From: a virus
Virus record (IMG/VR): IMGVR_UViG_3300045988_135167
Reading direction: 5' to 3' (one strand)
Length of the DNA: 64,000 nt
Made by a program: the position numbers and the translations under genes
Notes under the pieces: model-generated
Told to the model about the DNA's origin: nothing
Seen by the model: only the letters and a program-made list of their open reading frames with translations
The model's database searches: none
Part shown: one piece after another, positions 8,907-47,500 of the stretch
Layout: every line of letters starts with the position of its first letter
How positions within the stretch are numbered: position 1 is the first letter of the stretch

Positions 8907-10142
8907 TTAAAATCCTTTGAATCCTTCAATCGCGGACATCAGGTCCAGCGGCTTGCTCAGGTCCACTTCACCCTTCCCGGATTCGGGCTTCTCGGTAGAG
9001 TCAACGGGCTTGGCCACGCCCTTGTTCACGGAAGGAGCGGCTCCGCGCAACTTGCCAATCTTCTTCTTCAGGGCGGCGATTTCCTCCCTGGCCGCATTCA
9101 ATTCGGAAGTGGCTACATCCAGAAGAGCCGAACGCATGAACGCTTCATTGTCGATCTTGTGGCCGAGGTGCCGGGCACGCTTCAGCGTTTCCTCGGTGGG
9201 AACGGTTTCCAGCCCCAGGCTCTTGGCCATCTCGGCCAGGTTTTCCTGGGTGTACTTGGTCAAGTCCACTTCATACTTGCCCTCCGGCGTGAGGGAGGAC
9301 ATGAACTTGTCGGCGTACTCCTGGGCTTTGTCTTCAAAGGCCCAGTGCTTCTGGACAATTTCGTTGCGCCGAATAGCCATGCGGACGAACTTGGCCGTTT
9401 CGGCTGGCGTAATCCCCAGGGACTCGGCAATGTTCAAATAGGCTTCTTCCCGGTCAAAGCTGTCCATCGTGGTGTTTTCCACAATGGCATTGATCTTCTG
9501 GAAGGTTTCATCGGCATCCAGGGCATTGGTCCGGATGATGCTATTCAAGGACGCATTGGCCTTCTCGAAAGGAACGGTCACTTCGTTCTTGTATTCTTCC
9601 GACTCCCGGAACGCATAAGCGTTGAAAGCATTGCGGTACTTTTCAAGCTCGGCTTTTTCATCCTCGGAAACCGGAGCGGCTTTCAACTGCTCCTGAAGCT
9701 CCTTGATTTTCTTTTCCTGCTCCTTCAACTGAACGCGCATTTCCGCAAACTTCTGCGTAGCGCGGGGACTGGTCTTGGGCTGGGTCGGTTCCCCTCCTTC
9801 TTCGTTCTCCGGCTCGCTGGGTTCATCACCCTGGGGTTCGGAAGATTCGTTTTCAGGTTCACCGCCTTGTTCATTCTCCGGAGCCGGGGAAGGTTCGGCA
9901 GGGTTTCCCGGTTCAGGATTCTGCGTTGCATCGGGAGCCTGGTTGGGGTCGAACTCCCCGCGGTTCATCTGTTCATAGATTTCCGTGGGTTGCTGGGCCG
10001 CGGCATCCGCTTTTGCAATGGCTTCGTTCACCAAGTCCAGCAAGCCTCCGGCAGAGCTGGAAGGCATGGAAGACGGATTGATGTCACCGTTGACGGGGTT
10101 GACAGTAACATCCGGAGTAGGGGCAATAATAGGATCACTCAT
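8907..10142 (-). CDS. Putative scaffolding protein, 411 aa.
   Basis: Glu/Gln/Lys-rich coiled-coil-like sequence (QLKEQEKKIKELQEQLKA) and an acidic Pro/Glu-rich N-terminus. Lies between portal and capsid. Confidence 0.5.
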   Translation of the reverse strand: MSDPIIAPTPDVTVNPVNGDINPSSMPSSSAGGLLDLVNEAIAKADAAAQQPTEIYEQMNRGEFDPNQAPDATQNPEPGNPAEPSPAPENEQGGEPENESSEPQGDEPSEPENEEGGEPTQPKTSPRATQKFAEMRVQLKEQEKKIKELQEQLKAAPVSEDEKAELEKYRNAFNAYAFRESEEYKNEVTVPFEKANASLNSIIRTNALDADETFQKINAIVENTTMDSFDREEAYLNIAESLGITPAETAKFVRMAIRRNEIVQKHWAFEDKAQEYADKFMSSLTPEGKYEVDLTKYTQENLAEMAKSLGLETVPTEETLKRARHLGHKIDNEAFMRSALLDVATSELNAAREEIAALKKKIGKLRGAAPSVNKGVAKPVDSTEKPESGKGEVDLSKPLDLMSAIEGFKGF

Positions 10143-19099: not shown

Positions 19100-20452
19100 C
19101 GCAGAACCTCCCTGACGAGCAATACCCCTGTTATCCTATTAAGGATGGGTTAAGGCTATCACAGCGGGAAGCAAAGTCAATTAGGATTTCATTAAAAATT
19201 CATATCCTTAATTATCTAGAATAAATTTCTATGATTCTCGCTTCGACAACTCGCTAACCTTCCACTGGTTCTCCCAGTCTCTAGTGAACTCGAATCTCCA
19301 CGAGCGTAAGTTTCCGACTCCTCATCGGTACAATATTTTAAAATATTCAACGCCGCATTCAGGTCCCTATCTGCGGTATAGCCACAAAAAGGACATTTAA
19401 ATGTGCGCTTGGATAAATCCTTCATCGCACGATGACGTTCTCCGCAACAAGAACATAACTGCGATGAAGGGTACCATGGATCAACAAGCTCAAACGTACG
19501 TCCTGCACGAACGCATTTATATTCAAGCTGACGACGTATCTCATAAAATGATTGCTCTCCAATACTTCGGGCGAGATGATGGTTTTTCATCATGCCCTTG
19601 GTGTTGAGCGTCTCCATCCGAATCGCTTGGTTCTCGCGAACAAGGAATGAAGTCATTTTATGGATAAAGTCTGTATGTTGGCGCATTAAGCGTCTGTTGC
19701 GTTTTGCCAATGCGATTTTGGCTCTTGTGCGTCTCTTGCTACCTTTATGGCAACGAGAAAAATGTCTTTGAGAAAGCTTGATGCGACGCAATGAACGCTT
19801 CAAAGGGTTCCAACAAAAGACTTTTCCATCAGAGCAAGTCACAGTGGATTTGAGGCCAAGATCAATACCAACTTCTTTATTTACTAAAGGAAGAGACTCA
19901 ACAGGGTAATCGAAAAGAACTGAGCAATAGTAATCAATCCCATCCGTAGAAAGAGTGGCTCGTTTCAATTTCACATCTGGGATATAACCTTTGTTGTAAA
20001 ACTTGACCCGACCAAGTTTAGCAAGGCGAAGATGGTTACCATCCTCAAGACGTGGAACTGTGGGACTTACAGAAGAATAAGACTGTCTTAACTCTTTCTT
20101 ACTCTTGAACTTAGGGTAACTTGCCGAATGTGACCAAAAGCGCTGAAATGCTTTTGAGAGATTGTCGAAAACAAACTTCGGTATTTGAGAATCACACTCA
20201 TTAAGCCACATGAAATTAGAGTCCTCTTTCTTAAGCTTTCTTATTTCATTCCCAAGGTCAAAAGCGGATGGCCTTTTGGGCCGCTGATCCTTGGGGTATC
20301 TTTGTTCTCTTCCCACCATTTGTTGAGTCTTTCCAATCCCCAATTCCAAAGGAATCTTGAAGCACCAAAATTCCGATGAACCAATTCTTTTTGGAACTTG
20401 TTCAAATGAACTTTCACTTTACGACTCTGAAACATAGTTAAATTAAAGCAAC
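19100..20452 (-). mobile_element. IS200/IS605-family tnpB-only (IS1341-like) element. The boundaries are approximate.
   Basis: TnpB ORF plus a hairpin-rich 3' flank, inserted 17 nt after the upstream gene's stop. Sits at the junction between the structural and replication modules. Confidence 0.55.
19216..20435 (-). pseudogene. tnpB: tnpB (IS605 OrfB, RNA-guided nuclease family), interrupted by a +1/-1 frameshift near 20270-20300.
   Basis: N-terminal fragment 20241..20435 (KVHLNKFQKELVHRNFGASRFLWNWGLERLNKWWEE, the OrfB N-terminal HTH) and the body 19216..20349 overlap in different frames. The body carries the RuvC/zinc-finger C-terminus CSCCGERH...CPFCGYTADRDLNAALNI. Confidence 0.65.
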
Positions 20453-21661
20453 TTATTTTTCCCTCAAAAGACGAACCGAAGTTTTCCGGGCCGTCACGAT
20501 CCCGGAAGTCTCCAGGTCATTGATCAGGGCTTGCTTGATGGCATCCCTTTCCTTTTTGTTCGCTTCAGGAGCCATCTTGTCCAGCAGGACCACCAGGGCC
20601 TTTTTGAAAGAGACGCTGTTGGTGCATGCCATCAGCTCTTCCTGCGTCAGCTCTTCCCGCAGGTAAGCGGTCAGGGCTTCCTTGTTCACAGTCAGAAGCT
20701 CGCCGCCATTGTCGAACTTCCAGCCGGGAACCGGAATCCCCATGGCATTGAGGCTCTTGGCCGTTTCCTTCAACTGGTTTTGAGCCTCGGAAGCCACCTT
20801 GTAAAAGGATAACAACTTGCCTACCAGCACATTGTTCTGCACGGCATCCAAAATGTTGCTTATGTCGGTTCCCTTCAGGTCTTCTTCCTTCAGCACTTCC
20901 GCGGAGAAGGAAATGGCCAGCTCCGTCACCCGGCGGCAGGATGCACATTTGGCACAATACGGGCACACATCCGGGGAGGACTGGTAGGTAAACGGATTTT
21001 CCCGGTCGCGGTTCCTCCGGGAAATCACCGCCTTGTAGCCATCGCGGGCCTGGCGGTAATCCCTGGCCGCAAAATTGACATGATTTTCCCGGAGCTTCTT
21101 TTTAGACGAGCGGACCATCCGGGCCACCTTCAGGCTGTCGGAAAGTGTGGGCTGGATCACGGCCAGATAACACTCCTGGCACTGGCGGTTCTCAGCGAAC
21201 TCGAACACGCCGTAAATCATCAGCTGGGAATTGTCCTTGGGGTGGGTCACGGGGAGAAGACCCATCTTGTAGTCGGCAATACAGGACTTGTCGCCGCACC
21301 GGATCAGCACGTCGGCCGTCCCGCTTTGCTTTTCCTTCAGGCCCTTGAACGTCACCCCGCGGAACTTGTGCTCCCGGATGATGTTCAACTCCCCGCGCCC
21401 CACGCCCCAGAGGGAGCAGAGTTCATCCAGCAGGGATTCCAGGTCCGTATTGGCCCGGTTGTACAGGGAGGATTCATGAACGGACAGCAGGGGTTCGGGG
21501 TCCTGCTTCTCCAGGGCATAGTGGATTCGGGAACCGACGGCGGCCGGGGAGAACTCGTCCTCTTCTTCGTCTTCCCGCTCACGGTCTTCATAGCCGGGAC
21601 AGGTAGCGATCATCATCACCTTGGAAGGTGAATACTTGGTATGACTTACAGGGGTACTCAT
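20453..21661 (-). CDS. PD-(D/E)XK nuclease of the Cas4/RecB type with a C-terminal Cys cluster, 402 aa.
   Basis: IADYKMG (D-x-K motif), QLMIYGV (QxxxY), and a C-terminal CPYCAKCASC iron-sulfur-type cysteine cluster. Confidence 0.55.
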   Translation of the reverse strand: MSTPVSHTKYSPSKVMMIATCPGYEDREREDEEEDEFSPAAVGSRIHYALEKQDPEPLLSVHESSLYNRANTDLESLLDELCSLWGVGRGELNIIREHKFRGVTFKGLKEKQSGTADVLIRCGDKSCIADYKMGLLPVTHPKDNSQLMIYGVFEFAENRQCQECYLAVIQPTLSDSLKVARMVRSSKKKLRENHVNFAARDYRQARDGYKAVISRRNRDRENPFTYQSSPDVCPYCAKCASCRRVTELAISFSAEVLKEEDLKGTDISNILDAVQNNVLVGKLLSFYKVASEAQNQLKETAKSLNAMGIPVPGWKFDNGGELLTVNKEALTAYLREELTQEELMACTNSVSFKKALVVLLDKMAPEANKKERDAIKQALINDLETSGIVTARKTSVRLLREK

Positions 21662-24168
21662 TTTTCTATCAGTGTTTCCAGGTTTTCTTTTTTCTCTTCA
21701 ATGACTGCGGCGATCTTTTCCTCAATGGTGTTGGCCGCAACCAAAATGAACTGCCGCGTGTCGCTCTTGGCTCCGGCGCGGTCAATGCGTCCCAATGCCT
21801 GGACATTATCAATCAGGCTGTAGGAGAGGCTTAAAAGGGAGGCACGGGGACGTTGCCCATTGATGTCATGCAGGGAGAGTCCGGCTCCCCCGGCCTGAAT
21901 CTGAATGAAAGCAATATGGGCTTCGTCCCGCTGGAACTTGTCAATGGCCGCCTGGCGGCTCTTTTTGGACTGCCTTCCATCAATCCGGACGGAGGGAACC
22001 TTCGGGAACATTTCTTCCAGCGCATTGATGCTGTCCAGGAAAGTGAGGAACACGACCACGGAACAACCTTCATCCAGAAGGTTTTGCAGGAACTCGGCAA
22101 TCGTCGGGATTTTGTGAAGCTCCACTTCCTGCCGGGCGCGGAGCAATTCCACCACAGCCGGAGGCCCGGCATAGTCCCGGCCTTCCTCAATGGCTTTCAT
22201 CATGGCTTCCTCGCTCTTGATCAGGTCGGCATCCAATGTATTCTCCATCTTCTCCAGCCACTTCTGCATGCTGTTGATCCGGGAGACGGTCTCCTTGTCG
22301 TAGTCCACCAGCACGGTCTGGATGAAGGAGGTGGTGAAGTAGGGAGCCATTTCCGAGCGGTCCACCTTGGTCAGAATCCCGGCTTCCTTGAGACGGGAGT
22401 TGATGCGCTCCATGTGGGAGATGGTGACTGGAGTGCGGACAAACTCCAGGCCGCCCCAGAAAGCGTGGGTGCATCCATGCTGAAGCATCCAGGCCGTCTG
22501 GGAGATGTAGTTGGTGAACATGCCGAAGGCATAGGCGAAGTAGCCCATGTCCAGCGGATTGATGAAGGGTGTAGCCGAGAGAAGGATCGTTGGTATCTTC
22601 ATGCGGGCGGCCGAAACAAAGGCCAGCCCTTGCAAAGAGAACCGCCCCGCCCGGAGGGCCTGGGCCTCGTCTGAGATAAGCACGGCATCATCCGGGAGGT
22701 TCCAGCGGCCGAGGTTGACGCACCGCTTGTCCCGGCGAACCGGAGGCTTGTACCACCGGGTGTTTCCACGGACCAGCTTGGCATAAGTAAGCACATCATA
22801 ATACTCCACCTTCTGCTGGTCCAGGGCGCGCTCCCAGGAAGAGACCACAGCCTTGGGACAGACCACCACCGGGCGTTTTCCCATGCGCTTCACCGTCTCT
22901 ACAGCCATCAAGGTATTATGGACAATGGTAAAATCACCAAGGAGAAAACGATGGTCCACGTCGTTTACAAACCCGTAATAATCTCCGACCCCTATTGCCT
23001 CTACTTTAAACCCGGTTCTTAAAACATTCTTCTTTTGTTTTCTAATTGAACATTTTCTTCTCGGTACTCGAACAGGTATGCAACTTATATTTCCAGATAT
23101 AACAATTATATAATATAAATCTTCCTTATTAGTATTGGTACAAACCTTTTTTCTAAGCTTGGAATAAGAAGCAAAACCTAATGATCTGGCTACAAATAAT
23201 ATGTCTTCACAAAATCCTTTATATTTTGTGGAAATCTCATAACATCCATTTGTTAAATACCCATCAGTATCAATGATACCTGCAAGAACATTTAATCGGG
23301 TTTCATGACTTCCACATTTATATGGGTGCTTTATCCGTCGTTCCTTCCCATTAAAAATATTTCTATAAATAATCTGTCGTGGAAGTTCTTGGTTCTTGCT
23401 TATACTGGTAAAACTTAAAGGGGTAACACGGTTTACCGCTTTTATTTCTTTTGCCCTCCATCCGATACTTTCAGCGTACCCTTTACAATATTCCAATACC
23501 TCATTATCAACATTGGTTATTTGAGAACACGGGTAGAGCTTTCCATTTACTGTTACAGGTGAAGAGCCATCACCCAAATAAACTCCTACAAAATAAGGGT
23601 CAAGCTCCGGTTTCTCTATCTCCGGGAAATCTACTCCGGTCCTTACCAGCTTGAATCGGTGTTTAAAAGTTTTGGATGATGAAAGATATTCTTTAAGAGA
23701 TATATCAATCAATTCCCCTGCCCAATATTTTCTACCTCCCAATGAAATTTTTACAGGTGTTGTTCCGGAAATTATACCTGTTATAATATGTTCATCGTTA
23801 ACAATATGGGGATCACCTTTAAAGGGAACGATACGATACATCGGGGCTTGGCCACGGGCAAGACTCAAAACTTGACGAGGACAAGAGTCCGGACCCATTA
23901 TTTTATCTCCGACACTTACTTGTTCAATAGGTTTAATTGTACCGTTGAACATCAGAACAGGAGTTCCTTTTCCGAAGCACTTGCCGACCCCGGTGTTGCT
24001 GGAGTTCAGCACAATCCCGTTGCGGCGCATGGACTCCAGCATTTCACCGATGCACCGCTCCTGCGGAGGGAACGGGTTCAGGGGTTCCGGAACATACGCC
24101 TTCTGCGTCTCCAGGGTTTTCCGGGAGGCATTGCCCGTATTGGTCAGTCGGATTCGTCGGGTCGGCAT
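21658..24168 (-). CDS. SNF2/DEAD-like helicase, 836 aa, interrupted by a 355-aa LAGLIDADG intein. The extein is about 481 aa.
   Basis: Walker A GVGK|T is split by the intein. DEAQALR motif II and C-terminal helicase motifs are present. Intein features: Cys1 (CFGKG), two LAGLIDADG blocks (VGVYLGDGSS and LAGIIDTDGYL), and a terminal HN followed by Thr. Confidence 0.7.
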   Translation of the reverse strand: MPTRRIRLTNTGNASRKTLETQKAYVPEPLNPFPPQERCIGEMLESMRRNGIVLNSSNTGVGKCFGKGTPVLMFNGTIKPIEQVSVGDKIMGPDSCPRQVLSLARGQAPMYRIVPFKGDPHIVNDEHIITGIISGTTPVKISLGGRKYWAGELIDISLKEYLSSSKTFKHRFKLVRTGVDFPEIEKPELDPYFVGVYLGDGSSPVTVNGKLYPCSQITNVDNEVLEYCKGYAESIGWRAKEIKAVNRVTPLSFTSISKNQELPRQIIYRNIFNGKERRIKHPYKCGSHETRLNVLAGIIDTDGYLTNGCYEISTKYKGFCEDILFVARSLGFASYSKLRKKVCTNTNKEDLYYIIVISGNISCIPVRVPRRKCSIRKQKKNVLRTGFKVEAIGVGDYYGFVNDVDHRFLLGDFTIVHNTLMAVETVKRMGKRPVVVCPKAVVSSWERALDQQKVEYYDVLTYAKLVRGNTRWYKPPVRRDKRCVNLGRWNLPDDAVLISDEAQALRAGRFSLQGLAFVSAARMKIPTILLSATPFINPLDMGYFAYAFGMFTNYISQTAWMLQHGCTHAFWGGLEFVRTPVTISHMERINSRLKEAGILTKVDRSEMAPYFTTSFIQTVLVDYDKETVSRINSMQKWLEKMENTLDADLIKSEEAMMKAIEEGRDYAGPPAVVELLRARQEVELHKIPTIAEFLQNLLDEGCSVVVFLTFLDSINALEEMFPKVPSVRIDGRQSKKSRQAAIDKFQRDEAHIAFIQIQAGGAGLSLHDINGQRPRASLLSLSYSLIDNVQALGRIDRAGAKSDTRQFILVAANTIEEKIAAVIEEKKENLETLIEK
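22915..23979 (-). other. Intein (Hint plus LAGLIDADG homing endonuclease) inserted in the helicase P-loop.
   Basis: Begins at Cys (TGC at 23977-23979) and ends at His-Asn (22915-22920) followed by Thr. Splicing restores NTGVGKTLMAVE. The central part (about 22980-23800) is markedly AT-rich relative to the flanks. Confidence 0.65.
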
Positions 24169-29390: not shown

Positions 29391-32318
29391 TTACATGAAC
29401 AGGGCCAGTTCCTCTTCGGCCTGTTCGGGCGTGTACAGCTCCCCTTTCTCCAGGGCCAGCCGCCCCTTTTCCACCAGGGCTTCAAAGTATCTGCGGGGCA
29501 GGATTCGGCGCAACTGGACGGCCGATTTGTTGAACTTGCGCACATAATTCAGGTCTTCGGCTTCCACGCCGAAATAGCTCCGCACCGACTTGAAGAAGGC
29601 GTTTGAGGTCTTGCGGCCGTTGTCCACGCGGGTGCTGTCGTCCCCGGTGGCGCGGAGCAGGGTTTCGATGATGTTCTTGGCCATGGTGAACTTGTAGGGA
29701 AGGAACCGCTCCACAGGTTCGGAAAGTCCGGGGACCTCCCAGTCCTTTTTAATGTACACCAGGTAGGGAACCAGATGGGCGAACTGGGAGGGGATCACCG
29801 AGTTCCTGGTATTGTTCAAATCAGTCAGCGGCTCCAGCGAAGCAAAGCTTAACTTTTCCGAAGCTTCTTCGGAGAGGTAGCGAATCTGCGCCCAGAACTG
29901 TTGCTTGTCGATGTGGGACATTTTGACCATGTCCACGCTGGAGATGTTGATGACAAAGTACCGCCGGGTCCCCGTGTCATCGGAAAGGAACTTCTCCTGG
30001 TTAGTCGTTCCAATGAAGCTGGACTGCACGGCCAGCTCCAGCTCCTGCCTCCCATAGGGAGGCCGCACCTTGACGTGCGACTTGGAAATCAATGCCTTCA
30101 ACGCACCCTGCTTCTCTTCGGTGGAGAGCATGTTTTCCAGCTCTTCAAAGTGGATGACCACCGTGGAGGAAAGCTTCATCAGGGTGTCCTTGCTCTTGGG
30201 GTCGCATTCGGAAACTTCATCCAGCAGAGAGCCGAACTTGGAAAAACAAGCGGACACCCAGCGGTTCTTCCCCTTGCCCTGCGGACCGTTGAGAATGAGA
30301 AGGGCTGTCTGGGGAACCTCGCGGGAGTCCAGCATGTTATTGGCAAACAGGACGCGCCGCCACAAATTGATGAACCACACATAGAGAACCGAATCGGTGA
30401 ACCCGCGGGTCAACTCCTTGGACGGATCAAAGAACGGGCACTGGGAAAGGTCCGAAGCTTCCACGTTGGAAATGTCCATCTCCCAGTCGGGATTCAGGAC
30501 CAGGGAATGAAAGACTTCAGTCACCCGGTCCTTGCCGTCCCAGGGCTTCTCATAGGCCATGGCCATCAGCGCATGGAACTTGGTGCGCTGGGCAATGTAG
30601 CGCAGGTGGTGCATGACCTGCTCATTGTTGGGCTTGGGGAAGAAGTCATTGATCCGGGAGTAAATGGAAGAGAACATTTCATTGTTCAAGTCATATACCG
30701 TCCCCCGGTAAGTATCAAAAAGCATCAGACATTTATTGCTTATATCAAGATAAGGAATGATATTCAAGCAGTTGCGAAGAAACCAATCCAGATTGACCAT
30801 GTTAAACACGGGCTTTCCGTACTTGAGTTCATGGAAAACCCGGTTCTCCTGGACAGTCTGCGGGTCTTCCATGTCATCGGCCTTCTTCAAATCCTTTTCG
30901 GAAGAGGGAACCACATCCGGGAACCAGCCGACGTAGTAGGGAGGAAGGAACTTGAAATCTTCAAACGACCTGCGCGGGGCCTGGTAAATGCGCGAAAGCA
31001 ACGGGGTTGTCCGGTAAGACAGTTCCTCTTCGCCGCCAATGGCCTCCAGCGATTCATAGGATGCAATGAACGCCCGCCAGTAATCGGACATGTTCATCGG
31101 GACCAGCTTGTCGTCGTAGCAGGAAGCATGGAAGCAGTTCCAAATAGCAAATAGCTGGTTGTCGGCACTGATCTGCACGGACAGGTCGGTATCGGCTCTG
31201 GCCCCCTTGCACACGTCCTTGCAACAGGGGCACCAGGAGACATAGCGCGTCGGGTCCCCCGGTTTTGGCTTCATGTTCAAAACAGCCTCTTCCAATTCCT
31301 TTCTCCCGGCCAGCCTCAGCCATCCGGCAAAATCAAGCAGGATTTTGGGCTTGTCCTCCGTGGCTTCCATGGGACGGTCCATGGCTTCACCGCCGCGGAC
31401 TTCAAGGCTCCGGCACATGTACTGCGCCTCGGCCAGCTTGTCCCGGTCAAAGACAAAAGGCTCGCCTCCATTTGAGGCGAACAGGTGCATCTTGCAGGCG
31501 GGGTCGCGGTAGAGGAACTGGAGCCGGGTAACATCGGAACACTTGAGGTCCACGGAAAAACCCTTGGCCTCAATCATGGAAGCCAGATACAGGAAAAGCT
31601 GGCGGTGCAGGGACCACCGAGCCTTGTTGGTTCCAGTATTCAGAAGCTCAACAGTGGCATCGTCCACGCGCAACAGGACCTTGATTCCTCCCGAAGGACT
31701 CTGGAACAGGAAGCAGAATCCGGGGAACTCCGGGGCTTCCTTGCATGCCCTGCGGAAGAGCTTTGCCGGATCGGTTCCATTCGCGTTCTCGCCCAAGTCC
31801 AGGTCAATTCCGAAGAACCCCGAATGCTTCCACGATGCGGGGTTCTCCGCGGCCTGGCGTTTGGGCGAACTCAGGGACTCCTGGGGAATGAAGTACACGG
31901 AGGGAACCAGGGCCGGAAGGCTCTTTTTCATTTCATCCTTATGGGGTTCCCACAGATGAAGCCCCGATTCGTAGAGGGGTGGAAGCACAGTTCCCTGCGT
32001 CAGGGGTCCTGGATTCTTCAGCTTGTTGAAGGCATCCACCTGGAACCCGGCCATCCGCAGGTCAGGAGGCAAGTCCTCGAAAATGCCCGAAAAGAACTTC
32101 TTTAACTGTTTTACATTGATTGTGCTTGTGTTGTAGCACGCTCCGGCGGTTCTTACGATTCCACGGTCATTGACTACTTTCTTCCAGCTTGAGGACCGCA
32201 ACTGGGTCAGGGAAATAGCAGGGAGGGGAGATGGATTCATGGGTTCCAACCTACCCCGATTCATCGGTTGGTCAAGACTAAAAACGGTAGTCAGGGGCCA
32301 TTTTTTATACCCAACCAC
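29391..32318 (-). CDS. Primase/helicase (D5-like SF3 helicase with an N-terminal primase-like zinc region). The start is uncertain.
   Basis: P-loop LILNGPQGKGKNRW with downstream acidic Walker B region. N-terminal Cys cluster VSWCPCCKD...CFHASC. It is the first gene of the leftward replication block. Confidence 0.5.
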   Translation of the reverse strand: MVGYKKWPLTTVFSLDQPMNRGRLEPMNPSPLPAISLTQLRSSSWKKVVNDRGIVRTAGACYNTSTINVKQLKKFFSGIFEDLPPDLRMAGFQVDAFNKLKNPGPLTQGTVLPPLYESGLHLWEPHKDEMKKSLPALVPSVYFIPQESLSSPKRQAAENPASWKHSGFFGIDLDLGENANGTDPAKLFRRACKEAPEFPGFCFLFQSPSGGIKVLLRVDDATVELLNTGTNKARWSLHRQLFLYLASMIEAKGFSVDLKCSDVTRLQFLYRDPACKMHLFASNGGEPFVFDRDKLAEAQYMCRSLEVRGGEAMDRPMEATEDKPKILLDFAGWLRLAGRKELEEAVLNMKPKPGDPTRYVSWCPCCKDVCKGARADTDLSVQISADNQLFAIWNCFHASCYDDKLVPMNMSDYWRAFIASYESLEAIGGEEELSYRTTPLLSRIYQAPRRSFEDFKFLPPYYVGWFPDVVPSSEKDLKKADDMEDPQTVQENRVFHELKYGKPVFNMVNLDWFLRNCLNIIPYLDISNKCLMLFDTYRGTVYDLNNEMFSSIYSRINDFFPKPNNEQVMHHLRYIAQRTKFHALMAMAYEKPWDGKDRVTEVFHSLVLNPDWEMDISNVEASDLSQCPFFDPSKELTRGFTDSVLYVWFINLWRRVLFANNMLDSREVPQTALLILNGPQGKGKNRWVSACFSKFGSLLDEVSECDPKSKDTLMKLSSTVVIHFEELENMLSTEEKQGALKALISKSHVKVRPPYGRQELELAVQSSFIGTTNQEKFLSDDTGTRRYFVINISSVDMVKMSHIDKQQFWAQIRYLSEEASEKLSFASLEPLTDLNNTRNSVIPSQFAHLVPYLVYIKKDWEVPGLSEPVERFLPYKFTMAKNIIETLLRATGDDSTRVDNGRKTSNAFFKSVRSYFGVEAEDLNYVRKFNKSAVQLRRILPRRYFEALVEKGRLALEKGELYTPEQAEEELALFM

Positions 32319-34080
32319 GATTTTTTAATAGGTGAAAAGTCAGAACAGAAAATCCCAAATAATCTAGTAAGACCCCCATCGTATATAGGGTAAGCGAGAG
32401 GTTAAGATTTTTTGGCTTTCCCAGGATATGACTAAGCGTCAGCGACTTATCGGTTTCCGTTAGTCCGTTAGCTATAAACTCCAATATATACATACGTGAG
32501 AAATGTAGTTATAAAAAAACACATATAGGAATGTCCGCGCGTTAAATGTGTGCGCGGGAGAAAGCCAACCGGAAGCTGAGGGCAAGCCCAAACCCATCTG
32601 TTTTATCCCGCCCTCGCAAAATTGCCCATTCCCGCCATTCTTTCATGTAGGGTGTACACCTAACAGGGCCTTCAGGTATAACTTTAAGCCTCGACCACTA
32701 TCACCATTCACCCTCTCGCATATTTTCAATTTTGGTTCCATCACCCTCCCTGGAACGCCCCTCCGGTGCTTTTCTCCGTGCCAGGGTGGATTCCCGGTTC
32801 GACGGACCCATGTTCCGTTGGCCCGCTCACGTGTACGCGCGACCCTGGCGCAAATCCCGGTTTGTCGTCCTGGCGAATCGTGAACCCGGCTTCAACGATC
32901 CTTCGCTTCAACGCTTCCCCGGTTCAAAACTTCGGCGACCCCATTTCCGGAAAAATGCGAGTTGAGGATTTGGATATGCGCGGCGGGCGGCTGAAGGGGG
33001 AGTGACCGTGGTGGTGTCAAAAAAGTTAGGTGCGACTTTTTTAGAATCATTCCAACATTGAAGCGGTGAATCGGAGCCGCGCCGGGAAAACCAAACGCCC
33101 TACCGTATAGCATAACTCGCTTATACTTAACAGTCTCTTAATCCATACTTCGCATAATATACGTAATGCCAAATCGGTTGCGTGTCCAGTGCATAACGCG
33201 TTGAAGCTTAGAACCTTGAACCCTTTTCCGTTGGCTTTTCGCTTGGGAGAATCTGCGATTCATTGGTTCAACGGTTCGGCGTAGCAAAAGAATCCATTCT
33301 GGAGCTTTACAAAATTGTAAAAAAGAGACTTTTCTTTTGCGCCAAATTGTAAATCCCTACCATTCCGATAGGGATAAACGCTGAAGCGTTGTAACGTAGT
33401 TGCGTTGAATCATTTAGCCACATACCAGAACCGACATATCAATGAATCACGATACGTTGATGCGTTGAATCGTTGAACTGTGGAAGGTCTGCAAGGAATA
33501 AAATTTTATGCTTGAATGTAAAACTTTTCTAAATCCCTATAAACCAATGACTTATAAGGATTTAGAATCACTGAATCAACAATCGGAGCATCGAAAAGGC
33601 ATAAAATTTTATACAATTCGGCTAAAATCATATAAAATTTTATCCAACTGATATTCAATCACTTGGGATAGAATCATGAAAAAACCCATAACGAAGCGTT
33701 GAATCATTGAAGCGTTGAATCGTAGAATCTTGTTCACTTTTTATACGCTTGTATAAAAAGTGACGGGGAAACCGGGAATCATGGAGCCGTGAAACTGGAA
33801 AAAAGTCCAAAATGGAGCCGTGAAACTGAAAAAGAGTCCAGAATGGAGCCGGAATGAGTCAAAACTTTTTATACAAGCGTATAAAAAGTGAACAAGGCTC
33901 ACATGCGAGGGTTGTATGACACAATCATAACCTATTGATACTGAACAGATAATAAAATTTTTGAAGAAAAGGATTGACGTAATAAAAAAAATAATGATAA
34001 AAGATAGTCATCAGCCGAACGAACTACAAACCGACTGAATCCAACAATCAAATACTAAACAATAGAAAGAACCAGCCAAC
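32319..34080. other. Non-coding divergent control region, a candidate replication origin. It contains iterons, palindromes and inverted repeats around a GC-rich structured island.
   Basis: No credible ORF. GCGTTGAATC occurs 4 times (33402, 33462, 33697, 33712) plus degenerate and inverted copies. ATAAAATTTTAT occurs 3 times. An inverted-repeat pair (CACTTTTTATA-n6-TATAAAAAGTG, 33735-33762 and 33866-33890) flanks three 31-bp direct repeats (33781-33865). Confidence 0.6.
32530..33035 (+). ncRNA. Candidate structured non-coding RNA. This is a GC-rich island with many hairpins, and the strand is uncertain.
   Basis: Hairpins at 32534-32558, 32578-32616, 32744-32767 and 32882-32928 (enclosing two CTTCAACG motifs), then an AU-rich stem plus T-run at 33017-33043. 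The translations look non-protein (Pro/Cys-rich, overlapping frames). Confidence 0.3.
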
Positions 34081-34344
34081 ATGAAGAGATACCGATTTGT
34101 GATTTACGCCTTGAAAGGCATTGCAGGCCTGAAAGCGGTTGACTCCCTGGAATGCTCTACGCTTTTGGAAACTATCCGGAAAGGCAAGCATGCCGTTGAA
34201 ACTAAAGGTGAAAGCCTTGTCATGTGGGTCCAAAAATACGAACCGGGTACTGAGCCGTCCGGCTGGCTGACAGTCACTGTGTTCACCCGCAAGGGCGGCC
34301 CGCGCTCCCATTGGATGGAAAAGCCGGACTACTCCCCCTATTAA
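34081..34344 (+). CDS. Early hypothetical protein, 87 aa.
   Basis: ATG 10 nt after AATAGAAAGAACCA. First gene of the rightward block. Confidence 0.45.
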   Translation: MKRYRFVIYALKGIAGLKAVDSLECSTLLETIRKGKHAVETKGESLVMWVQKYEPGTEPSGWLTVTVFTRKGGPRSHWMEKPDYSPY

Positions 34345-34371
34345 CCCTAAACCATAGAAAGACAATAGATT

Positions 34372-34467
34372 ATGACAGAAGAAAATAAAGAAATGGAATG
34401 GGAGACACACGCCCTTGCGAGTCAGGCGGCGGCCCGTGCTAATGCAACCCTTATATGGTGCGTGTGA
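34372..34467 (+). CDS. Small early ORF, 31 aa.
   Basis: ATG 9 nt after CATAGAAAGA. Not in the ORF track because it is under 60 aa. Confidence 0.3.
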   Translation: MTEENKEMEWETHALASQAAARANATLIWCV

Positions 34468-34480
34468 TTTTACCGTTCGC

Positions 34481-34506
34481 CGAATTGTTCCACGTGGAAC
34501 AATTCG
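34481..34506. promoter_or_regulatory. 26-bp perfect palindrome CGAATTGTTCCACGTGGAACAATTCG, followed by the hairpin GGCGAGGTTTTAATCTCGCC (34519-34538).
   Basis: Direct reading. Confidence 0.8.
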
Positions 34507-34572
34507 AGAATCACAAAAGGCGAGGTTTTAATCTCGCCGCATAAATAAGCCAATAGACAGGAAAATCAAATC

Positions 34573-34818
34573 ATGAAGCCTATCATTACATTCTGCAAGC
34601 CGGACCTTTCCGGAAAAATCGCGCCCCTTTGTGGCACGATGGATTCCTATTTGGACGACGGCCGCCGCTCCCTGGAGTCCATTAAACAATCTGCATGGGA
34701 AGAATTGAAGCGACGGAACGCCCATTCAAAAACCAATTATGCCGGGTTTGTCATTTATAATGCCATTTCCTTCCCATGGCGCACCGTGTACAAAACCCAT
34801 GAAGAAATTGAGGATTGA
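34573..34818 (+). CDS. Early hypothetical protein, 81 aa.
   Basis: ATG follows CCAATAGACAGG, a variant of the upstream motif. Confidence 0.4.
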   Translation: MKPIITFCKPDLSGKIAPLCGTMDSYLDDGRRSLESIKQSAWEELKRRNAHSKTNYAGFVIYNAISFPWRTVYKTHEEIED

Positions 34819-34856
34819 ACCTTTAATTTGAAGGAAAAAGCATATATCTTTGAATC

Positions 34857-35054
34857 ATGATAACTTCATATATTCCCCCTTGCCTTCAGCGGTCCGCGCG
34901 TGAATTGGAGCTTGAACTGGCAAAGACCCGGTGGATTCAAGCCGTTGAATACCTGAAAGAAGAAATTGAAAATAACAAGCACGACAAGCGGAAAGTCCGC
35001 GCCTTGCTTCAACGGCTCCGGGATCAATATTCATGGAGGCCTGCTATTTATTAA
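34857..35054 (+). CDS. Early hypothetical protein, 65 aa.
   Basis: ORF. Confidence 0.3.
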   Translation: MITSYIPPCLQRSARELELELAKTRWIQAVEYLKEEIENNKHDKRKVRALLQRLRDQYSWRPAIY

Positions 35055-35194: not shown

Positions 35195-35608
35195 ATGAAT
35201 ACTAAAGAAAGACGCACAGAAGACCTTCTAAGGGCATTTGGAATTCGATTTTCTAAATTTAAATTAGGTCTTAGAATCCCGCCGCACTGGGGCGACTGTC
35301 AAGATCGTCACATGGAATATTTGGTACGGTTTGAACGATTGAAGCCGCGGAGGGGCGAAAAAGATGTGTTAAACGTTTTATGGTACGCTTCTTTACTGAG
35401 ACCAAATGAATGCACAGCGTTTGACGTTCTGACTACCTTGACTAAAGAAAAGTTCGCCGATTTTGAAGATTTCGCGGATCAACTTGGTATGGATTATTCC
35501 AAAAAAAGTTACAAGCTTTACAACGCCATCCAACAGGAAGCGGAAGACGTGATAGCTTTCTTTTCCCGTGAAAATGAATTGAACTTAATTTCTACCCTCG
35601 AAGACTAA
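35195..35608 (+). CDS. Early hypothetical protein, 137 aa.
   Basis: ORF. Confidence 0.4.
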   Translation: MNTKERRTEDLLRAFGIRFSKFKLGLRIPPHWGDCQDRHMEYLVRFERLKPRRGEKDVLNVLWYASLLRPNECTAFDVLTTLTKEKFADFEDFADQLGMDYSKKSYKLYNAIQQEAEDVIAFFSRENELNLISTLED

Positions 35609-36109: not shown

Positions 36110-36182
36110 GAACCTCAAACCAAATCAAAAGGCAGGATTAAAATCCTGCCACGTAAACAAACCAATAGAAAGAACCAACAAT

Positions 36183-36815
36183 ATGAACGCTAATTCAATT
36201 TATGAACTGGAACAATTAAAGGAAAAAGTCGCGCTGAACCGTTGCATCCTGGAAATCTGGATCGACGTATTGCCTCACATGGACAAATGCTTTAAAACTT
36301 TTCAGGAATGGCTTGAAAAGCACCAAGGGCAAGTGATTAACAAGCGCGTGAATACAGCCATGAAAGAAGCCTTTCGTGGGTTTGATTTCCCGAACTTATC
36401 CCACAAGGAGTTTAGGAATGTTTCCCTGCGAACGTTTGTAGATTTTGAATTTTCCCGTTATCAGGTAAACGCTTTTCAATTTTCTGTTAACATGGAGGTA
36501 ATCTACTCTTTGAAGACTGACGAATTTGGATGTAAATATGATAAAAGTTTTTGGATTAACGAAGACGGTATGACAATCGGCAAGATTGACGTTAATTTAG
36601 TTGAAGGAATTAAAAACATGCGTAGAAAGTTGAAGAAGAAAATCCATGAGGCAAAAGATTTGTTGAATCACTATGAAGACCGCATGGCCGTTCTTGTTCA
36701 AAAAGCGGAAGCATGTCTTCAGGCAATGGAAGACTGGGAGAAAGCAACAAACCTTTTTAATAGCCCGCGCTGCTTTATTGCTGTGGAATCCTGCCCTAAA
36801 TTGAATAAACGTTAA
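36183..36815 (+). CDS. Early hypothetical protein, about 210 aa. The start is MNANSIYELEQ.
   Basis: ATG 9 nt after CCAATAGAAAGAACCA. The upstream extension in the ORF track starts at the ATG inside the palindrome and is an artefact. Confidence 0.45.
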   Translation: MNANSIYELEQLKEKVALNRCILEIWIDVLPHMDKCFKTFQEWLEKHQGQVINKRVNTAMKEAFRGFDFPNLSHKEFRNVSLRTFVDFEFSRYQVNAFQFSVNMEVIYSLKTDEFGCKYDKSFWINEDGMTIGKIDVNLVEGIKNMRRKLKKKIHEAKDLLNHYEDRMAVLVQKAEACLQAMEDWEKATNLFNSPRCFIAVESCPKLNKR

Positions 36816-38169: not shown

Positions 38170-38275
38170 TTCAATACCCCGCCGGGAAGCCTGAAGCTTC
38201 CCGGCATCCTCACCAAGCCAAAAGCAGGCCTCACGGCTTGCCGCGTAAAACAAGCCAATAGAAAGAACCAAACAA

Positions 38276-38773
38276 ATGATTGAAGCTAAAGAAACGCCGC
38301 ATCAACTGACGTTGCATCATTTAAACGATGTAGTTCAAATCGTGGGAAACCGTTTCATGTCCTACGAATGGAAGGAAAAAGACCGCATGATCAACCTGCA
38401 TGTGCGCCCGGAAGTGGCATGGGACCTGATGAAACTCCTGCGTTCGCAGGGTTACCGCGTCAAATGCCGCGTTGAATCCAGGTTCCGGAAGCCCGCCATG
38501 GTGCTTTCCACCTCATTGAATGGCCGCTCCGGCAAGTCGGTAGCCTATGCCCGCCGGGCCGCGGAGCTGGCCTCCCAGTTTGAAGTTGACTCCCCGCAGG
38601 TACTCTTTAAAAAGCGGAGCGTGGAGCTTTCCTTCTGCGGGAAGGAAGACCTGGAGCGCATCATGGCCCGCATGGTGGATGCGCTGGATGAACTGGGGCA
38701 TGCCCGTCTGCTGAAGGAAGCCTGTCAGGGGACCCTTGGCCGCGAGTTCGTTTACACCATTATTTGCGATTAA
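38276..38773 (+). CDS. Early hypothetical protein, 165 aa.
   Basis: ATG 9 nt after CCAATAGAAAGAACCA. Hairpin CCGGGAAGC-CTGAA-GCTTCCCGG at 38184-38206. Confidence 0.45.
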   Translation: MIEAKETPHQLTLHHLNDVVQIVGNRFMSYEWKEKDRMINLHVRPEVAWDLMKLLRSQGYRVKCRVESRFRKPAMVLSTSLNGRSGKSVAYARRAAELASQFEVDSPQVLFKKRSVELSFCGKEDLERIMARMVDALDELGHARLLKEACQGTLGREFVYTIICD

Positions 38774-44528: not shown

Positions 44529-47500
44529 GTGCGTCAGATTAACGGCGCGCACCATCCTTTTATTATGGCTATTGATTATTCCAAGTTAAGACCTTCCGAC
44601 TTTCGACCGGAAAGAGATTCAGAGTTCCGGGCTGAAACCAATTTCCTTCAGCGGCAGGAGGACCGATCCACCCGGCTCCAGAAGGAAGAGGGGCAAGCCC
44701 AGGTCGAAGCCGAAGAACCGCTGGCCAAGTTTGAACAGGAGCTGGCCAAGACGATTGAACGGAATCGGAAGAATGCCGAGAGTGCGGAAGACCGCCAGCT
44801 CCGGTTGACCCGCCAGCAACAGGCCGACATTGACAAGGAAACTTCCAAGTTCGTGGCCACCACCACACGGGAGGACCGGGCCACGACCCAGGCAAACCAG
44901 AAAGCTGAGAGCAGGTTGGCCGCGCTGGGAAAAACCGGGAGAAGCGGTCTGGTATTCAATACGATTGAAGAGGCCGAACAGTATAACAGCCGTCCGGATA
45001 CTGACTTTGTTGACTATGTGTCAGGAGGCGCGGAAGCTTTCCGCAACAAGGCTTCTTCCCTGGGCCTGTCCGTGGTTGATCCGGCTTCCCTTCCCCAGCC
45101 TGTCAAGACCCGGCCAGCCCAGCAACGGGGAGATGAATTGACCGGGACCATGCTCAAGCGCAGTCCCTATGGTATAGCCGTCGGCAGTGATGGAAGCATT
45201 GTGGTCTCCGACAAGTTCATGCAGTTCGCCCTGAACCCGGACCTGGACCCGGCGACCCTGGCCAAGAATATTTCCCGAACATTTGATGCGTTTAAAAAAG
45301 AAGCCAATCCCACGCAGAACCCAAACAGCGAGATCAATTCACGCAACCTTGCACCCGAAGACATTGAACAACAAATCAGAACCCTCCGGGCCAGTGATGT
45401 CCGGACCCGTGATTCCGTCCGGAAAATCCTGCAAGAGCGGCAGGACGCGCTATCAAAGTACAAAGCAAGAGAAGAGAAGATTCAGCAAATCCAGGGTGGA
45501 AGCCCCGGCCAGCAAACTCAACGGCAGGAAGGAACCCCGCAAGTGGGGGAGCCGCTTGGAGGTGGCGAATCTTCTGAACTCACGTTCGTCCAGAACGTCA
45601 TCAGCCAGATCGACCGCCTCCGCACCGAGCCGGAACTTGCCGCTGAAGCCTTCGGGGAACAGCTCGCCGGACAGACAGACGCACAATCCGTAGCCCAGCG
45701 CGGAGCGGTGGCCGATGAATTGCAGTCGGCAATCGACCAGCAGGAGCGTTACAAACGCACGGAGGAACTGGCCGCCCGCATGCGGCTGATTGAAGAGAAC
45801 AAGGACAAGCTCGCCGAATCGCTGGTGCGCCAATCGCCCAACCTGGAATTCAGAACCATCCGCAAGGAGCTGGATGATGACAGCTTGATGGCCAATGAAG
45901 CGTTGGAGCAATGGGTCGTGAACCGTGGATTCCCTTTGACTCCGCAGGAAGCCGACATTATTAACAGCCGCTCCAATGAACTCTCCGCAAACGCGGCAAT
46001 CGCCGATGACTATGAGAAGGCCAGGGACCAGGCGGTGAGGGAATATCTCAAGTCCCAGGATGCGTCGCTGGATGACCGGGGCATTGATACCATGGGCCTT
46101 CAGCACTATGCCATGCGGCACATGGGCCAGCTTGACCAGGACAATTCCCCGGAGCGCGTGGCCAGGGAAGCCCTGCGCCATTGGGCCTCGGAGGCCCGGC
46201 AGATTTTTGGCGGCCAGGCGTTTGAGTCCGACCAGATGGTCAACCCCCTGGATGCGTTGCAGTGGGTCCACCGTCCGGAGACCGGGAAGTATATCCTTCA
46301 ATTCATTGATCCCACCACCAAGGAGGGGTATGGCAACGGCTATGAAGTGGACTTCATGGGGGTGCATGACAACGCCCGCCGCCTCGGCGTTACACCGGAA
46401 CAATACCTCGACGCTTTGGCCCTCCCCCTGCGCCAGGGAAACCTGGGTGACAGCCGGGACACCAACACACTCTTCGCTTATGATCCCATTAACCAGGTTC
46501 TTGTGGAAAATGCAACGATTGGGCAGGGCAATTCCGCAAGCTATTTTGATGATGCCCTGCTTGAGCGCAGTATTGAACAGGCCCGGAAAGCTGGCGCGCC
46601 GCAAGAGCAAATTGATGCGACCGTCAAAGAGGTCCAGCGCGTCCGGGATGAAGCGAGCCGTATCGTGGTCTCGGACCTCCTTCAGGAGTCGGATGCCATG
46701 GCCCTGGTCAGCGACACACCGCTTGAGGGGATCATCCCCCAGTCGGTCAAGGACAGCATCCAGGCATCCACGGCTGTCAATTTCCGGCAGTTCTATGACA
46801 TTGAAAAGAAAGCGGGCAAGGATGATCAGGAGATCATCCGGGACTACATGTCCGATGTGAAGGACAAGAAAATATCCATGGGGGTCAACATGGCCCTGGC
46901 CCGCTGGGAGAATCAGTGGAACCGCATCAAGCTGGCTTCCGAACAGTGGACCAAATCCGCGCTCTCCCTGCTCCCCGGAGTCAACCTCAACGAGGGACAG
47001 GGCCAGCGGTATGCTTCCGAATGGGAAGCCTTGAACAAGCGTGACCAGCTGATCACTTCTGCCGTGGGACGCGCCGGGTCCGTGGCAGAGTGGACGGGAG
47101 AATTTGGATCACTGGCTCTCCAGTTGGGAGAGTCTGCAATCTCAGGGGGATTGGGTTCCCTGGCCGGACGCGGGGCGGCCCGGCTTCTGGCCACCCGCGC
47201 CGCAACGATTGCAGGAACCAGCGTGGCTCTCCGAAGTGCTGAAGTGGTGGGAGCCGTAGCCCGGCCCGGAATCACCAGCCGCATCGGGCAGGGAGTCACC
47301 CGGCTCCTGACAACGGAGTCTGCAACCCTGGCCCGGCTCGGAGCCGGGACGGCCAACTCCATGTACATTGCCATGCAGAGCATGCCCCAGACCTACGGGG
47401 ATGTCTTCACCCACCGCTACCAGCAAGCCAGGGAGATGATCAACAACGATCCCCTCACCCGGAACATGGCCGAAGGAATGAAGGACGAGCTGGCCCAGAA

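Follow-up and report, generated by a model that had tools for sequence, protein, structure and literature searches.

The stretch between positions 32319 and 34080 of the IMG/VR virus record IMGVR_UViG_3300045988_135167 (64,000 nucleotides (nt) of DNA, the whole of which is called the window below) is a non-coding region between two gene blocks, both transcribed outward from it. It is best classed with the phage origins that in general combine iterons, AT-rich DNA and adjacent promoters; the phage lineage is an undescribed one. More specifically, we see an even chance that it is a replication origin made of iterons and an AT-rich segment and served by the adjacent primase-helicase, with sigma70-type promoters at both of its edges. 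We favour this because the module stays beside a gene resembling the Rep gene of Staphylococcus aureus pathogenicity islands (SaPIs), because its iterons are lineage-specific, and because these iterons lie on either side of the window's least stable DNA, an intein insert aside. If this is true, a group of phages apparently infecting gut Treponema, bacteria for which, to our knowledge, almost no phage biology is known, would have its first candidate for an origin and early-control region. This origin would moreover be paired with a self-loading, SaPI-Rep-like primase-helicase in a phage genome that is full-size and of lytic type.

From the repeats, their statistical excess and conservation, the linkage between module and primase gene and the resemblance in predicted fold, all of which were observed, we infer how binding, melting and initiation may proceed. 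The adjacent primase-helicase would be a self-loading initiator of the SaPI Rep or P4 alpha type, whose winged-helix-like C-terminal domain would bind short CGTTGAA(K) iterons. The sites it would read form head-to-tail clusters on both sides of the core at 33497-33696; other copies, inverted, lie at 32889-32920 and 33267. Once bound, the initiator would melt the AT-rich core, the helicase would load itself onto the melted DNA, and the N-terminal primase would then prime synthesis. The host sigma70 RNA polymerase would start leftward at about 32248-32275, toward the primase gene, and rightward at about 33974-34002, toward the early genes; since the gene blocks are transcribed outward, transcription would share its direction with the departing forks. 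Two palindromes and the 31-nt repeats between them most likely serve as operators or as binding arrays, by which early transcription would be coupled to the origin. The parts involved are:

29391-32240, (-) strand: primase-helicase, candidate initiator, with a primase/Zn region, a VapE-like AAA+ core and a C-terminal domain (residues ~821-949).
32248-32275, (-) strand: candidate primase promoter, TTGACC-16 nt-TAGGTT, ending 7 nt before the ATG at 32240.
32889-32920, (-) strand: CG(T/C)TGAAGC iteron array with 16-nt spacing, two copies in the window, copy number variable.
33383-33478, all copies on the (+) strand: left iteron cluster, GAAGCGTTGTAACG, GCGTTGAATC and CGTTGATG-CGTTGAAT-CGTTGAAC, including the imperfect palindrome f.
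33497-33696: AT-rich core, candidate DNA-unwinding element, GC content 0.28, with three ATAAAATTTTAT palindromes and, at 33527-33567, an inverted repeat with 16-nt arms.
33693-33729, (+) strand: right iteron cluster, GAAGCGTT GAATCATT GAAGCGTT GAATCGTA GAATC, head-to-tail.
33729-33896: palindromes and 31-nt repeats, candidate operator pair or binding array, 5' of the early promoter.
33954-34010, (+) strand: candidate rightward early promoter, TTTTTGAA...TTGACG (33974-33979), a 17-18-nt spacer and ATAAAA/TAAAAG.

The segment 32100-34400 was read directly and with repeat finders, including Tandem Repeats Finder (TRF), and pattern counts were compared with those in shuffled sequence. The four exact GCGTTGAATC iterons reported in the initial annotation are all present, at 33402, 33462, 33696 (given there as 33697) and 33712. 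When one mismatch is allowed, GCGTTGAATC occurs at 15 sites in 64 kilobases (kb) against 4.9 expected, seven of the 15 lying within 32905-33712, and none of 100 shuffles reached 15 such sites. The core CGTTGAA is found nine times in the stretch and 24 times in the remaining 62 kb, i.e. at a 13-fold higher density, and GAATC has 16 copies on the (+) strand vs 2 on the (-) strand. The right cluster is described by TRF as an 8-nt head-to-tail unit, GAATCGTT, repeated 4.6 times. The inverted CTTCAACG pair previously noticed is indeed found at 32889-32920, as are the two direct copies of AAATTGTAAA, at 33312 and 33344; inverted CGTTGAA copies occur at 33267, 32907 and 32891, that is, 230-600 base pairs (bp) to the left of the flanking clusters. 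A search of the rest of the window for recurrence of the region's elements found none. The window contains no perfect DnaA box (TTATNCACA); three of its 45 one-mismatch boxes lie in the region, whose length would predict about 1.2, so that these boxes are neither enriched nor clustered there.

The comparison of close relatives shows how these sites evolve. On the primase strand, TTCAACG is present in six copies each in the window and in the related contigs L002, L005 and L010, despite differing positions, and single CGTTGAA copies have been both lost and gained. The right iteron cluster is partly lost in L010, where a compensating copy has been gained elsewhere, and extra copies of CG(T/C)TGAAGC have arisen by a 76-nt duplication in L002 and by a 38-nt insertion in L010. 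A constant number of sites with drifting positions, together with a variable copy number of the array, is the behaviour expected of a protein-binding array and not of neutral DNA.

The AT-rich core has the second-lowest GC content of any 200-bp stretch in 64 kb, behind the intein insert at 23.1 kb. That insert at 23 kb excepted, the window has no DNA less stable than this core and 33912-34011, its lowest-GC 100 bp (GC 0.23); the iteron clusters sit on both sides of the core. The three ATAAAATTTTAT palindromes were found as claimed, at the corrected positions 33498, 33601 and 33632. There is no other copy of ATAAAATTTTAT in 64 kb, where 0.07 would be expected, and the palindromes are kept in L010 and in the more distant L011, L097 and L063; among those kept are two that lie 31-32 nt from each other. 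Each ATAAAATTTTAT holds TAAAAT -10-like hexamers on both strands.

The predicted initiator is 949-975 amino acids (aa) long, depending on its start. The start at 32318 assumed in the initial annotation is ambiguous, since GTG 32318, ATG 32264 and ATG 32240 are all possible; it is called at 32240 in public gene calls and at 32264 in the second clade. In view of the former, the gene-free stretch may extend to 32241. The absence of a credible open reading frame (ORF) from the stretch itself was borne out: gene callers call nothing here on the contigs of seven relatives, and each of the ten ORFs of 47-111 aa either has its frame interrupted in L010 or L002 or shows far more non-synonymous than synonymous changes.

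The primase-helicase matches VapE-like_dom in Pfam (E 3.5e-28) and, in the PDB, the entry 7pds, annotated as 'Similar to D. nodosus vapE' (E 8e-8). An AlphaFold2 model of residues 637-949 was obtained with a mean predicted local distance difference test (pLDDT) score of 70.6, and of 73-92 in the C-terminal domain; the best Foldseek matches of this model are SaPI PriRep1 with double-stranded DNA (E 8e-7, 314 aligned columns) and the C-terminal region of the NrS-1 helicase. The modelled C-terminal domain is composed of helices and a beta-hairpin and was compared as part of the whole 637-949 model, which matches PriRep1 over its full length; the domain is here called winged-helix-like on the strength of the model. 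The SaPI Rep is a self-loading AAA+ helicase of the VapE-like, pre-sensor-II-insert type that binds its own origin and melts it; through its C-terminal winged helix it recognizes iterons of 5-6 nt, located to either side of an AT-rich centre (PMC9371898). Binding of the iterons had previously been proposed for the N-terminal domain of the primase; the model and the analogy with SaPI and P4 point to the C-terminal domain instead.

The region is kept in all the close relatives, with stems and iteron number preserved while loops, positions and copy numbers drift. In the second clade, represented by L010, the primase is 93% identical to that of the window. The two sequences show 1-5 differences per 60 nt over 32900-33200 and 33380-33560, and 20-22 differences per 60 nt just 5' of the primase gene (32300-32480). 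The region is thus under constraint without coding. An exhaustive profile search returned about ten full-length primase homologues, with 27-35% identity. One of them is encoded by L012 (part of a 67-kb contig; primase ~27-30% identical), which has a 2.7-kb gene-free gap 5' of the primase gene, between divergent blocks, with repeats of its own around an AT-rich patch, namely GGATTCCG, a 26-mer in four copies, and GGGTCGGGCTGA. In L011 (primase 30-35% identical), the gap measures 2.1 kb and is found 3' of the primase gene, flanked by two same-strand genes; it contains six copies of GTGAGTCACCGA, three inverted copies around a palindrome (CTATAATATATATAAT / ATTATATATATTATAG), and GGTAACG runs. 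Across these lineages, then, the module keeps its place beside the primase gene, and each lineage has iterons of its own. Iterons that change with the initiator are what would be expected of an initiator-iteron pair.

To the right of the core, the initial annotation had described a pair of inverted arms occurring twice in opposite orientation. Both occurrences are real, with loops of 4 nt and shifted coordinates: palindrome 1, TCACTTTTTATAC-GCTT-GTATAAAAAGTGA, spans 33734-33763 with a 13-bp stem, and palindrome 2, ACTTTTTATAC-AAGC-GTATAAAAAGT, spans 33864-33889 with an 11-bp stem. Jointly they form a perfect 33-nt inverted repeat (33729-33761 / 33864-33896) with arms 102 nt apart, and as DNA hairpins they score z -6.3 and -4.9, respectively, against shuffled sequence. 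The 31-nt direct repeat reported between them is present at 33781-33851, although in 2.3 copies and not in three. In close relatives, the palindrome stems are invariant while the 4-nt loops vary (AAGC, AAGT, GCCT, GCTT, AGGT). The 31-nt repeat is reduced to 1.3 copies in relatives, so that the spacing of the palindromes is 128 vs 97 bp; the difference of 31 bp is close to three helical turns, so that a DNA loop formed by a protein would stay in phase. The two palindromes with their 31-nt repeats lie 85-240 nt upstream of the candidate early promoter, and they are probably operators or binding arrays.

The candidate early promoter is nearly invariant in the close relatives, and L012 3340-3387 can be aligned with its -35 element and the tract preceding it. 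At the opposite edge, TTGACC-16-TAGGTT is identical in both clades despite diverged DNA just upstream. A simple scan for sigma70 promoters found 3 sites, as compared with 4.2 expected in shuffled sequence, i.e. no excess; on the basis of conservation, and not of the scan, both edges can be proposed to hold candidate sigma70-type promoters. In the same place in L012 (5960-6003), a perfect sigma70 consensus, TTGACA-16-TATAAT, is found 13 nt before the primase ATG, implying a very short leader.

Two features of the region were overlooked in the initial annotation, namely that its best-conserved part is the GC-rich left half (32520-33200) and that several of its elements are common to other phage families. 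The elements concerned, with a terminator-like element, are:

32512-32557, (-) strand: terminator-like element, a CCGCGC-N11-GCGCGG stem followed by a run of seven T, DNA fold z -2.6, kept in L010; its function is suggested by this form.
32638-32663, (+) strand: conserved element e, TTCTTTCATGTAGGGTGTACACCTAA, 22/26 identical in L097, L063 and L038 (other phage families; two copies in L038).
33111-33176, (-) strand: ultra-conserved block, CGATTTGGCATTAC-GT-ATATTATGCGAAGTATGGA..., with its core at 33144-33160.
33347-33375: hairpin element g, ATCCCTA-N9-TAGGGAT, with the stem kept and the loop changed in L038, and replaced by a GTATAAAAAGT copy in L010.
33912-33939, (+) strand: conserved element d, TTGTATGACACAATCATAACCTATTGAT, 19/20 identical in L097 and 25/28 in L038.

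The families compared were L011, L012, L097/L021, L063, L038 and L080. At E <= 0.5, the non-coding DNA of the window gave 28 local matches with them, whereas sixteen coding segments of the same length, taken as controls, gave 0-3. The block is 53/66 identical in L012 (E 3e-11), has 34-36 nt at 91-94% identity in L080, L063 and L038, and 54 nt at 85% in L097, although the primases of these phages are only 27-35% identical. Its core, ATATTATGCGAAGTATG, is identical in all these families and has the extended form CGATTT[G/T]GCATTAC-NN-core; the near-invariant, asymmetric part amounts to about 38 nt, CGATTTGGCATTAC-NN-ATATTATGCGAAGTATG. The block shows no secondary-structure signal (z +0.8), and the sequence downstream of it is not conserved between families. 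In the window, L011 and L012 it is directed away from the AT-rich core; in L097 it is inverted and points toward the AT-rich palindromes.

Besides the block, the shared set comprises the ATAAAATTTTAT palindromes, a TTTATAC-N4-GTATAAA hairpin (also found in L097 and L063), the ATCCCTA...TAGGGAT hairpin, TTGTATGACACAAT[C/T]ATAAC beside the early genes, TTTCATGTAGGGTG, and an imperfect palindrome built around GATACGTTGAT. Of the imperfect palindrome f (33434-33461), 24 of 28 positions are identical in L097. Element d lies directly 5' of the early genes in both L097 and L038, and in L097 the shared elements occur in nearly the same order toward the early genes, with the block inverted. L097, a human-gut phage, has a ~240-nt tandem duplication in its non-coding module (9560-10060, (-) strand), with TTTCATGTAGGGTG in each copy, and L038 does likewise. 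A scan for the 17-mer identified 112 metagenome stretches with an exact match, many of them probably due to chance, and about 25 loci that share the extended block. What goes beyond the ordinary here is the presence of near-invariant non-coding elements in phages whose proteins have diverged to ~30% identity, and the block is a simple tag by which members of this phage group can be recognized in metagenomes.

Several observations weigh against the origin. The GC-skew check proposed in the initial annotation gave no extremum at 33 kb: cumulative skew has its global minimum at 1637, its maximum at 62394, and a flat trough at 24-36 kb. GC skew thus gives no support to an origin here; the signal is weak and dominated by 56-62 kb, so that it withholds support rather than refutes. 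In addition, the two iteron clusters that flank the AT-rich core have the same orientation, in contrast to SaPI origins, and individual iteron copies are lost in close relatives. The best-conserved elements (the 33111-33176 block, the palindromes and element d) are probably read by something other than the initiator because they are common to phages with very different primases, and they are left unexplained by an iteron and its initiator. Of the origin with divergent promoters originally proposed, therefore, the anatomy is real and conserved and the edge promoters are candidates, while the support expected from cumulative GC skew did not materialize. The related genomes can be regarded as a natural experiment, in which lineage-specific iterons and near-invariant elements separate the sites read by the initiator from those read by a conserved factor.

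The main alternative to an origin is a purely transcriptional control hub, in which iterons, palindromes and block would be operators or promoter elements timing the divergent gene blocks while the origin lies elsewhere; we regard it as possible, though doubtful. It would account for the promoter candidates at both edges, for the TAAAAT hexamers in ATAAAATTTTAT, for the skew without origin signal and for the conservation of shared elements among phages with very different primases. Palindromes with invariant arms and free loops are like the operators of dimeric repressors, and their spacing change of about three helical turns would keep a DNA loop in phase. However, the promoter scan stayed below its expectation in shuffled sequence, and a search of the neighbouring small proteins against Pfam and PHROGs revealed no DNA-binding regulator. 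Furthermore, the L011 module, located 3' of the primase gene between same-strand genes, is ill-suited to divergent promoters, and 1.8-2.7 kb is very long for mere promoters and operators. A somewhat different proposal, which we make tentatively and think unlikely to hold, is that the module is a family-wide non-coding control cassette, with the block, ATAAAATTTTAT and the TTTATAC-N4-GTATAAA hairpins as recognition sites of some new type of conserved phage machine. This could be an RNA polymerase hidden in the 3323-aa protein encoded to the right of the region, with the block and other elements as its promoters, or the elements could be an iteron-independent priming or loading signal. The cassette would belong to a previously undescribed group of 60-76-kb, probably Treponema-infecting phages.

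Three further explanations appear considerably less probable. In T7- and N4-like phages, short repeat arrays and early promoters adjoin the terminal repeat, and the region, being non-coding, repeat-rich and beside early genes, might mark the physical genome ends as a direct-terminal-repeat junction or a pac/cos packaging site, which we think improbable. Several near-genome-length contigs of other families do seem to end within ~1 kb of the block, but locus ends derived from pattern scans may be storage limits and not contig ends. Similarly, the Logan contigs of this phage, built with k=31, often break at 32894 and 33758, but this is accounted for by the tandem duplication and the 33-nt inverted repeat, both longer than k. 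The region is moreover internal in the full-length MEGAHIT contigs L002 (68.7 kb) and L137 (69.9 kb) and in L012, and the terminase gene is 16 kb distant. It is also rather improbable that a non-coding RNA is encoded by the GC-rich left half (~32520-33180), with the block as its promoter or 5' end and 32512-32557 as its terminator. This would fit its being the best-conserved part without coding for protein, the terminator-like element at its primase-proximal end and the asymmetric, promoter-like block; yet folding of 32500-33060 gave no energy signal on either strand (z +0.6 and +0.2), and Rfam 15 had no match at E <= 1 over 31500-35000 and none at gathering score in six related loci. Nor does the lack of conservation downstream of the block between families, or its inversion in L097, agree with such a gene. 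Finally, the perfect arms 102 nt apart, just 5' of the early genes, are reminiscent of an invertible, phase-variable promoter segment, which is very improbable here: the relatives keep the two palindromes and not the long inverted repeat, the DNA between the palindromes has the same orientation in all six aligned genomes, and no invertase gene was found nearby. An inverton is excluded by these alignments.

Returning to the replication origin, its closest counterparts are the SaPI origins (PMC9371898), in which a VapE-like self-loading helicase initiator, fused to or paired with a primase, carries a C-terminal DNA-reading domain (here modelled), and in which a non-coding origin with iterons of lineage-specific sequence on both sides of an AT-rich centre adjoins the initiator gene. 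SaPI origins have six to twelve short iterons of 5-6 nt; nine CGTTGAA copies with a unit of 7-8 nt were counted here, in part in the clusters at 33383-33478 and 33693-33729 around the AT-rich centre. There are also differences. The iterons of the flanking clusters are all on the (+) strand here, in the same direction, and SaPI origins lie immediately downstream of rep, whereas the module is upstream in the window and L012 and downstream only in L011. In addition, SaPI origins measure a few hundred bp as compared with 1.8 kb, and have no counterpart to the palindromes, the 31-nt repeats and the conserved block. Because its flanking iterons point the same way, it lies upstream and it is several times longer, the module does not belong to the SaPI origin family as defined.

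In the satellite phage P4, the alpha protein combines primase, helicase and a C-terminal origin-binding domain that recognizes an octamer in direct and inverted orientation at two sites, ori and crr. A single primase-helicase polypeptide whose C-terminal domain reads short repeats is likewise proposed here, but the two P4 sites are 4.5 kb apart and the clusters here lie within 0.9 kb. The iteron origins of lambda-type phages and theta plasmids similarly have repeat arrays of variable copy number beside an AT-rich unwinding element; their initiators (O, RepA, Pi), however, are not helicases and recruit that of the host, and DnaA boxes are not enriched in the present region. The least stable segment holds an AT-rich motif of 12-14 nt in triplicate and in this recalls the three AT-rich 13-mers of Escherichia coli oriC, but here there is no DnaA-box cluster and the motifs are perfect palindromes conserved across phage families, which suggests a dimeric binding protein or bidirectional -10 elements. 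The strongly conserved, asymmetric element beside an AT-rich stretch is also like the promoter-plus-unwinding-element origins of T4 and T7, with the L097 block pointing toward the AT-rich palindromes; the opposite direction of the block in the window, L011 and L012 is unlike them.

The window represents most of one genome, as is shown by public contigs of 68-70 kb. It has no DNA match among 50,697 phage records, its PolA is at most ~26% identical to those of cultured phages, and scans of IMG/VR by primase and by hairpin found no close relatives. ARAGORN found no tRNA in the window. To the left of the gene-free stretch, the (-) strand encodes the primase-helicase, ThyX, a family A DNA polymerase, an SNF2-type helicase, an exonuclease and an IS605 TnpB, with the large terminase farther left, beyond TnpB. 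To the right, the (+) strand encodes small proteins without assigned function, an NAD-dependent ligase and the 3323-aa protein.

The probable host is a gut Treponema, because spacers of one clustered regularly interspaced short palindromic repeats (CRISPR) array match the phage and the identical repeat is present in a Treponema genome. This array, in the metagenome contig OGUM01002686.1 (L037 5429-9918), has 69 repeats (GTTTCAATTCACGCACCTGTGAAGGTGCGAC); 18 of its spacers match the window, eight of them perfectly, and about nine others match the L097 phage family. One of the perfectly matching spacers targets the conserved block, at 33138-33169. Among species-representative genomes, the repeat is found in identical form in a single metagenome-assembled genome, that of a Treponema sp. 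from horse faeces (L136). The E. coli-like promoter sequences at the edges of the module fit a Treponema host.

A few additional features of the genome may be mentioned. The SNF2-type helicase gene (21658-24168, (-) strand) contains an intein insert with Hint and LAGLIDADG homing endonuclease domains, which at 23.08-23.8 kb is the lowest-GC DNA of the window; it is missing from relatives, in which the gene encodes 416 aa. The IS605-family TnpB/OrfB transposase gene (19216-20349, (-) strand) lies within the replication-to-packaging block and has a variable form in relatives. The 3323-aa ORF (44529-54500, (+) strand) is in size reminiscent of N4-like virion RNA polymerases, an assignment that gains no support from PHROGs, Pfam or PDB sequences, where its product has no match. 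A 60-nt unit is repeated in tandem at 1-236 (3.9 copies, 85% matches), inside an apparent (-) strand gene starting near 337, and probably accounts for the many Logan contigs that end near window position 370.

In the early block, only the 137-aa protein encoded at 35195-35608 ((+) strand) has a detectable homologue in the L097 family. The homologue, at 30% identity, is the N-terminal part of a 328-aa protein (L097 5877-6239, (-) strand). No domain was found in the 137-aa protein, which is a candidate reader of the shared DNA elements. The motif CAATAGAAAGAACCA-N4-6-ATGA occurs directly 5' of three rightward early genes (34054-34085, 36157-36187 and 38256-38279), and a similar ATAGAAAGAAAAAACC-ATG precedes the (-) strand gene near 337; the CAATAGAAAGAACCA motif may be a common translation-start or promoter-proximal signal.

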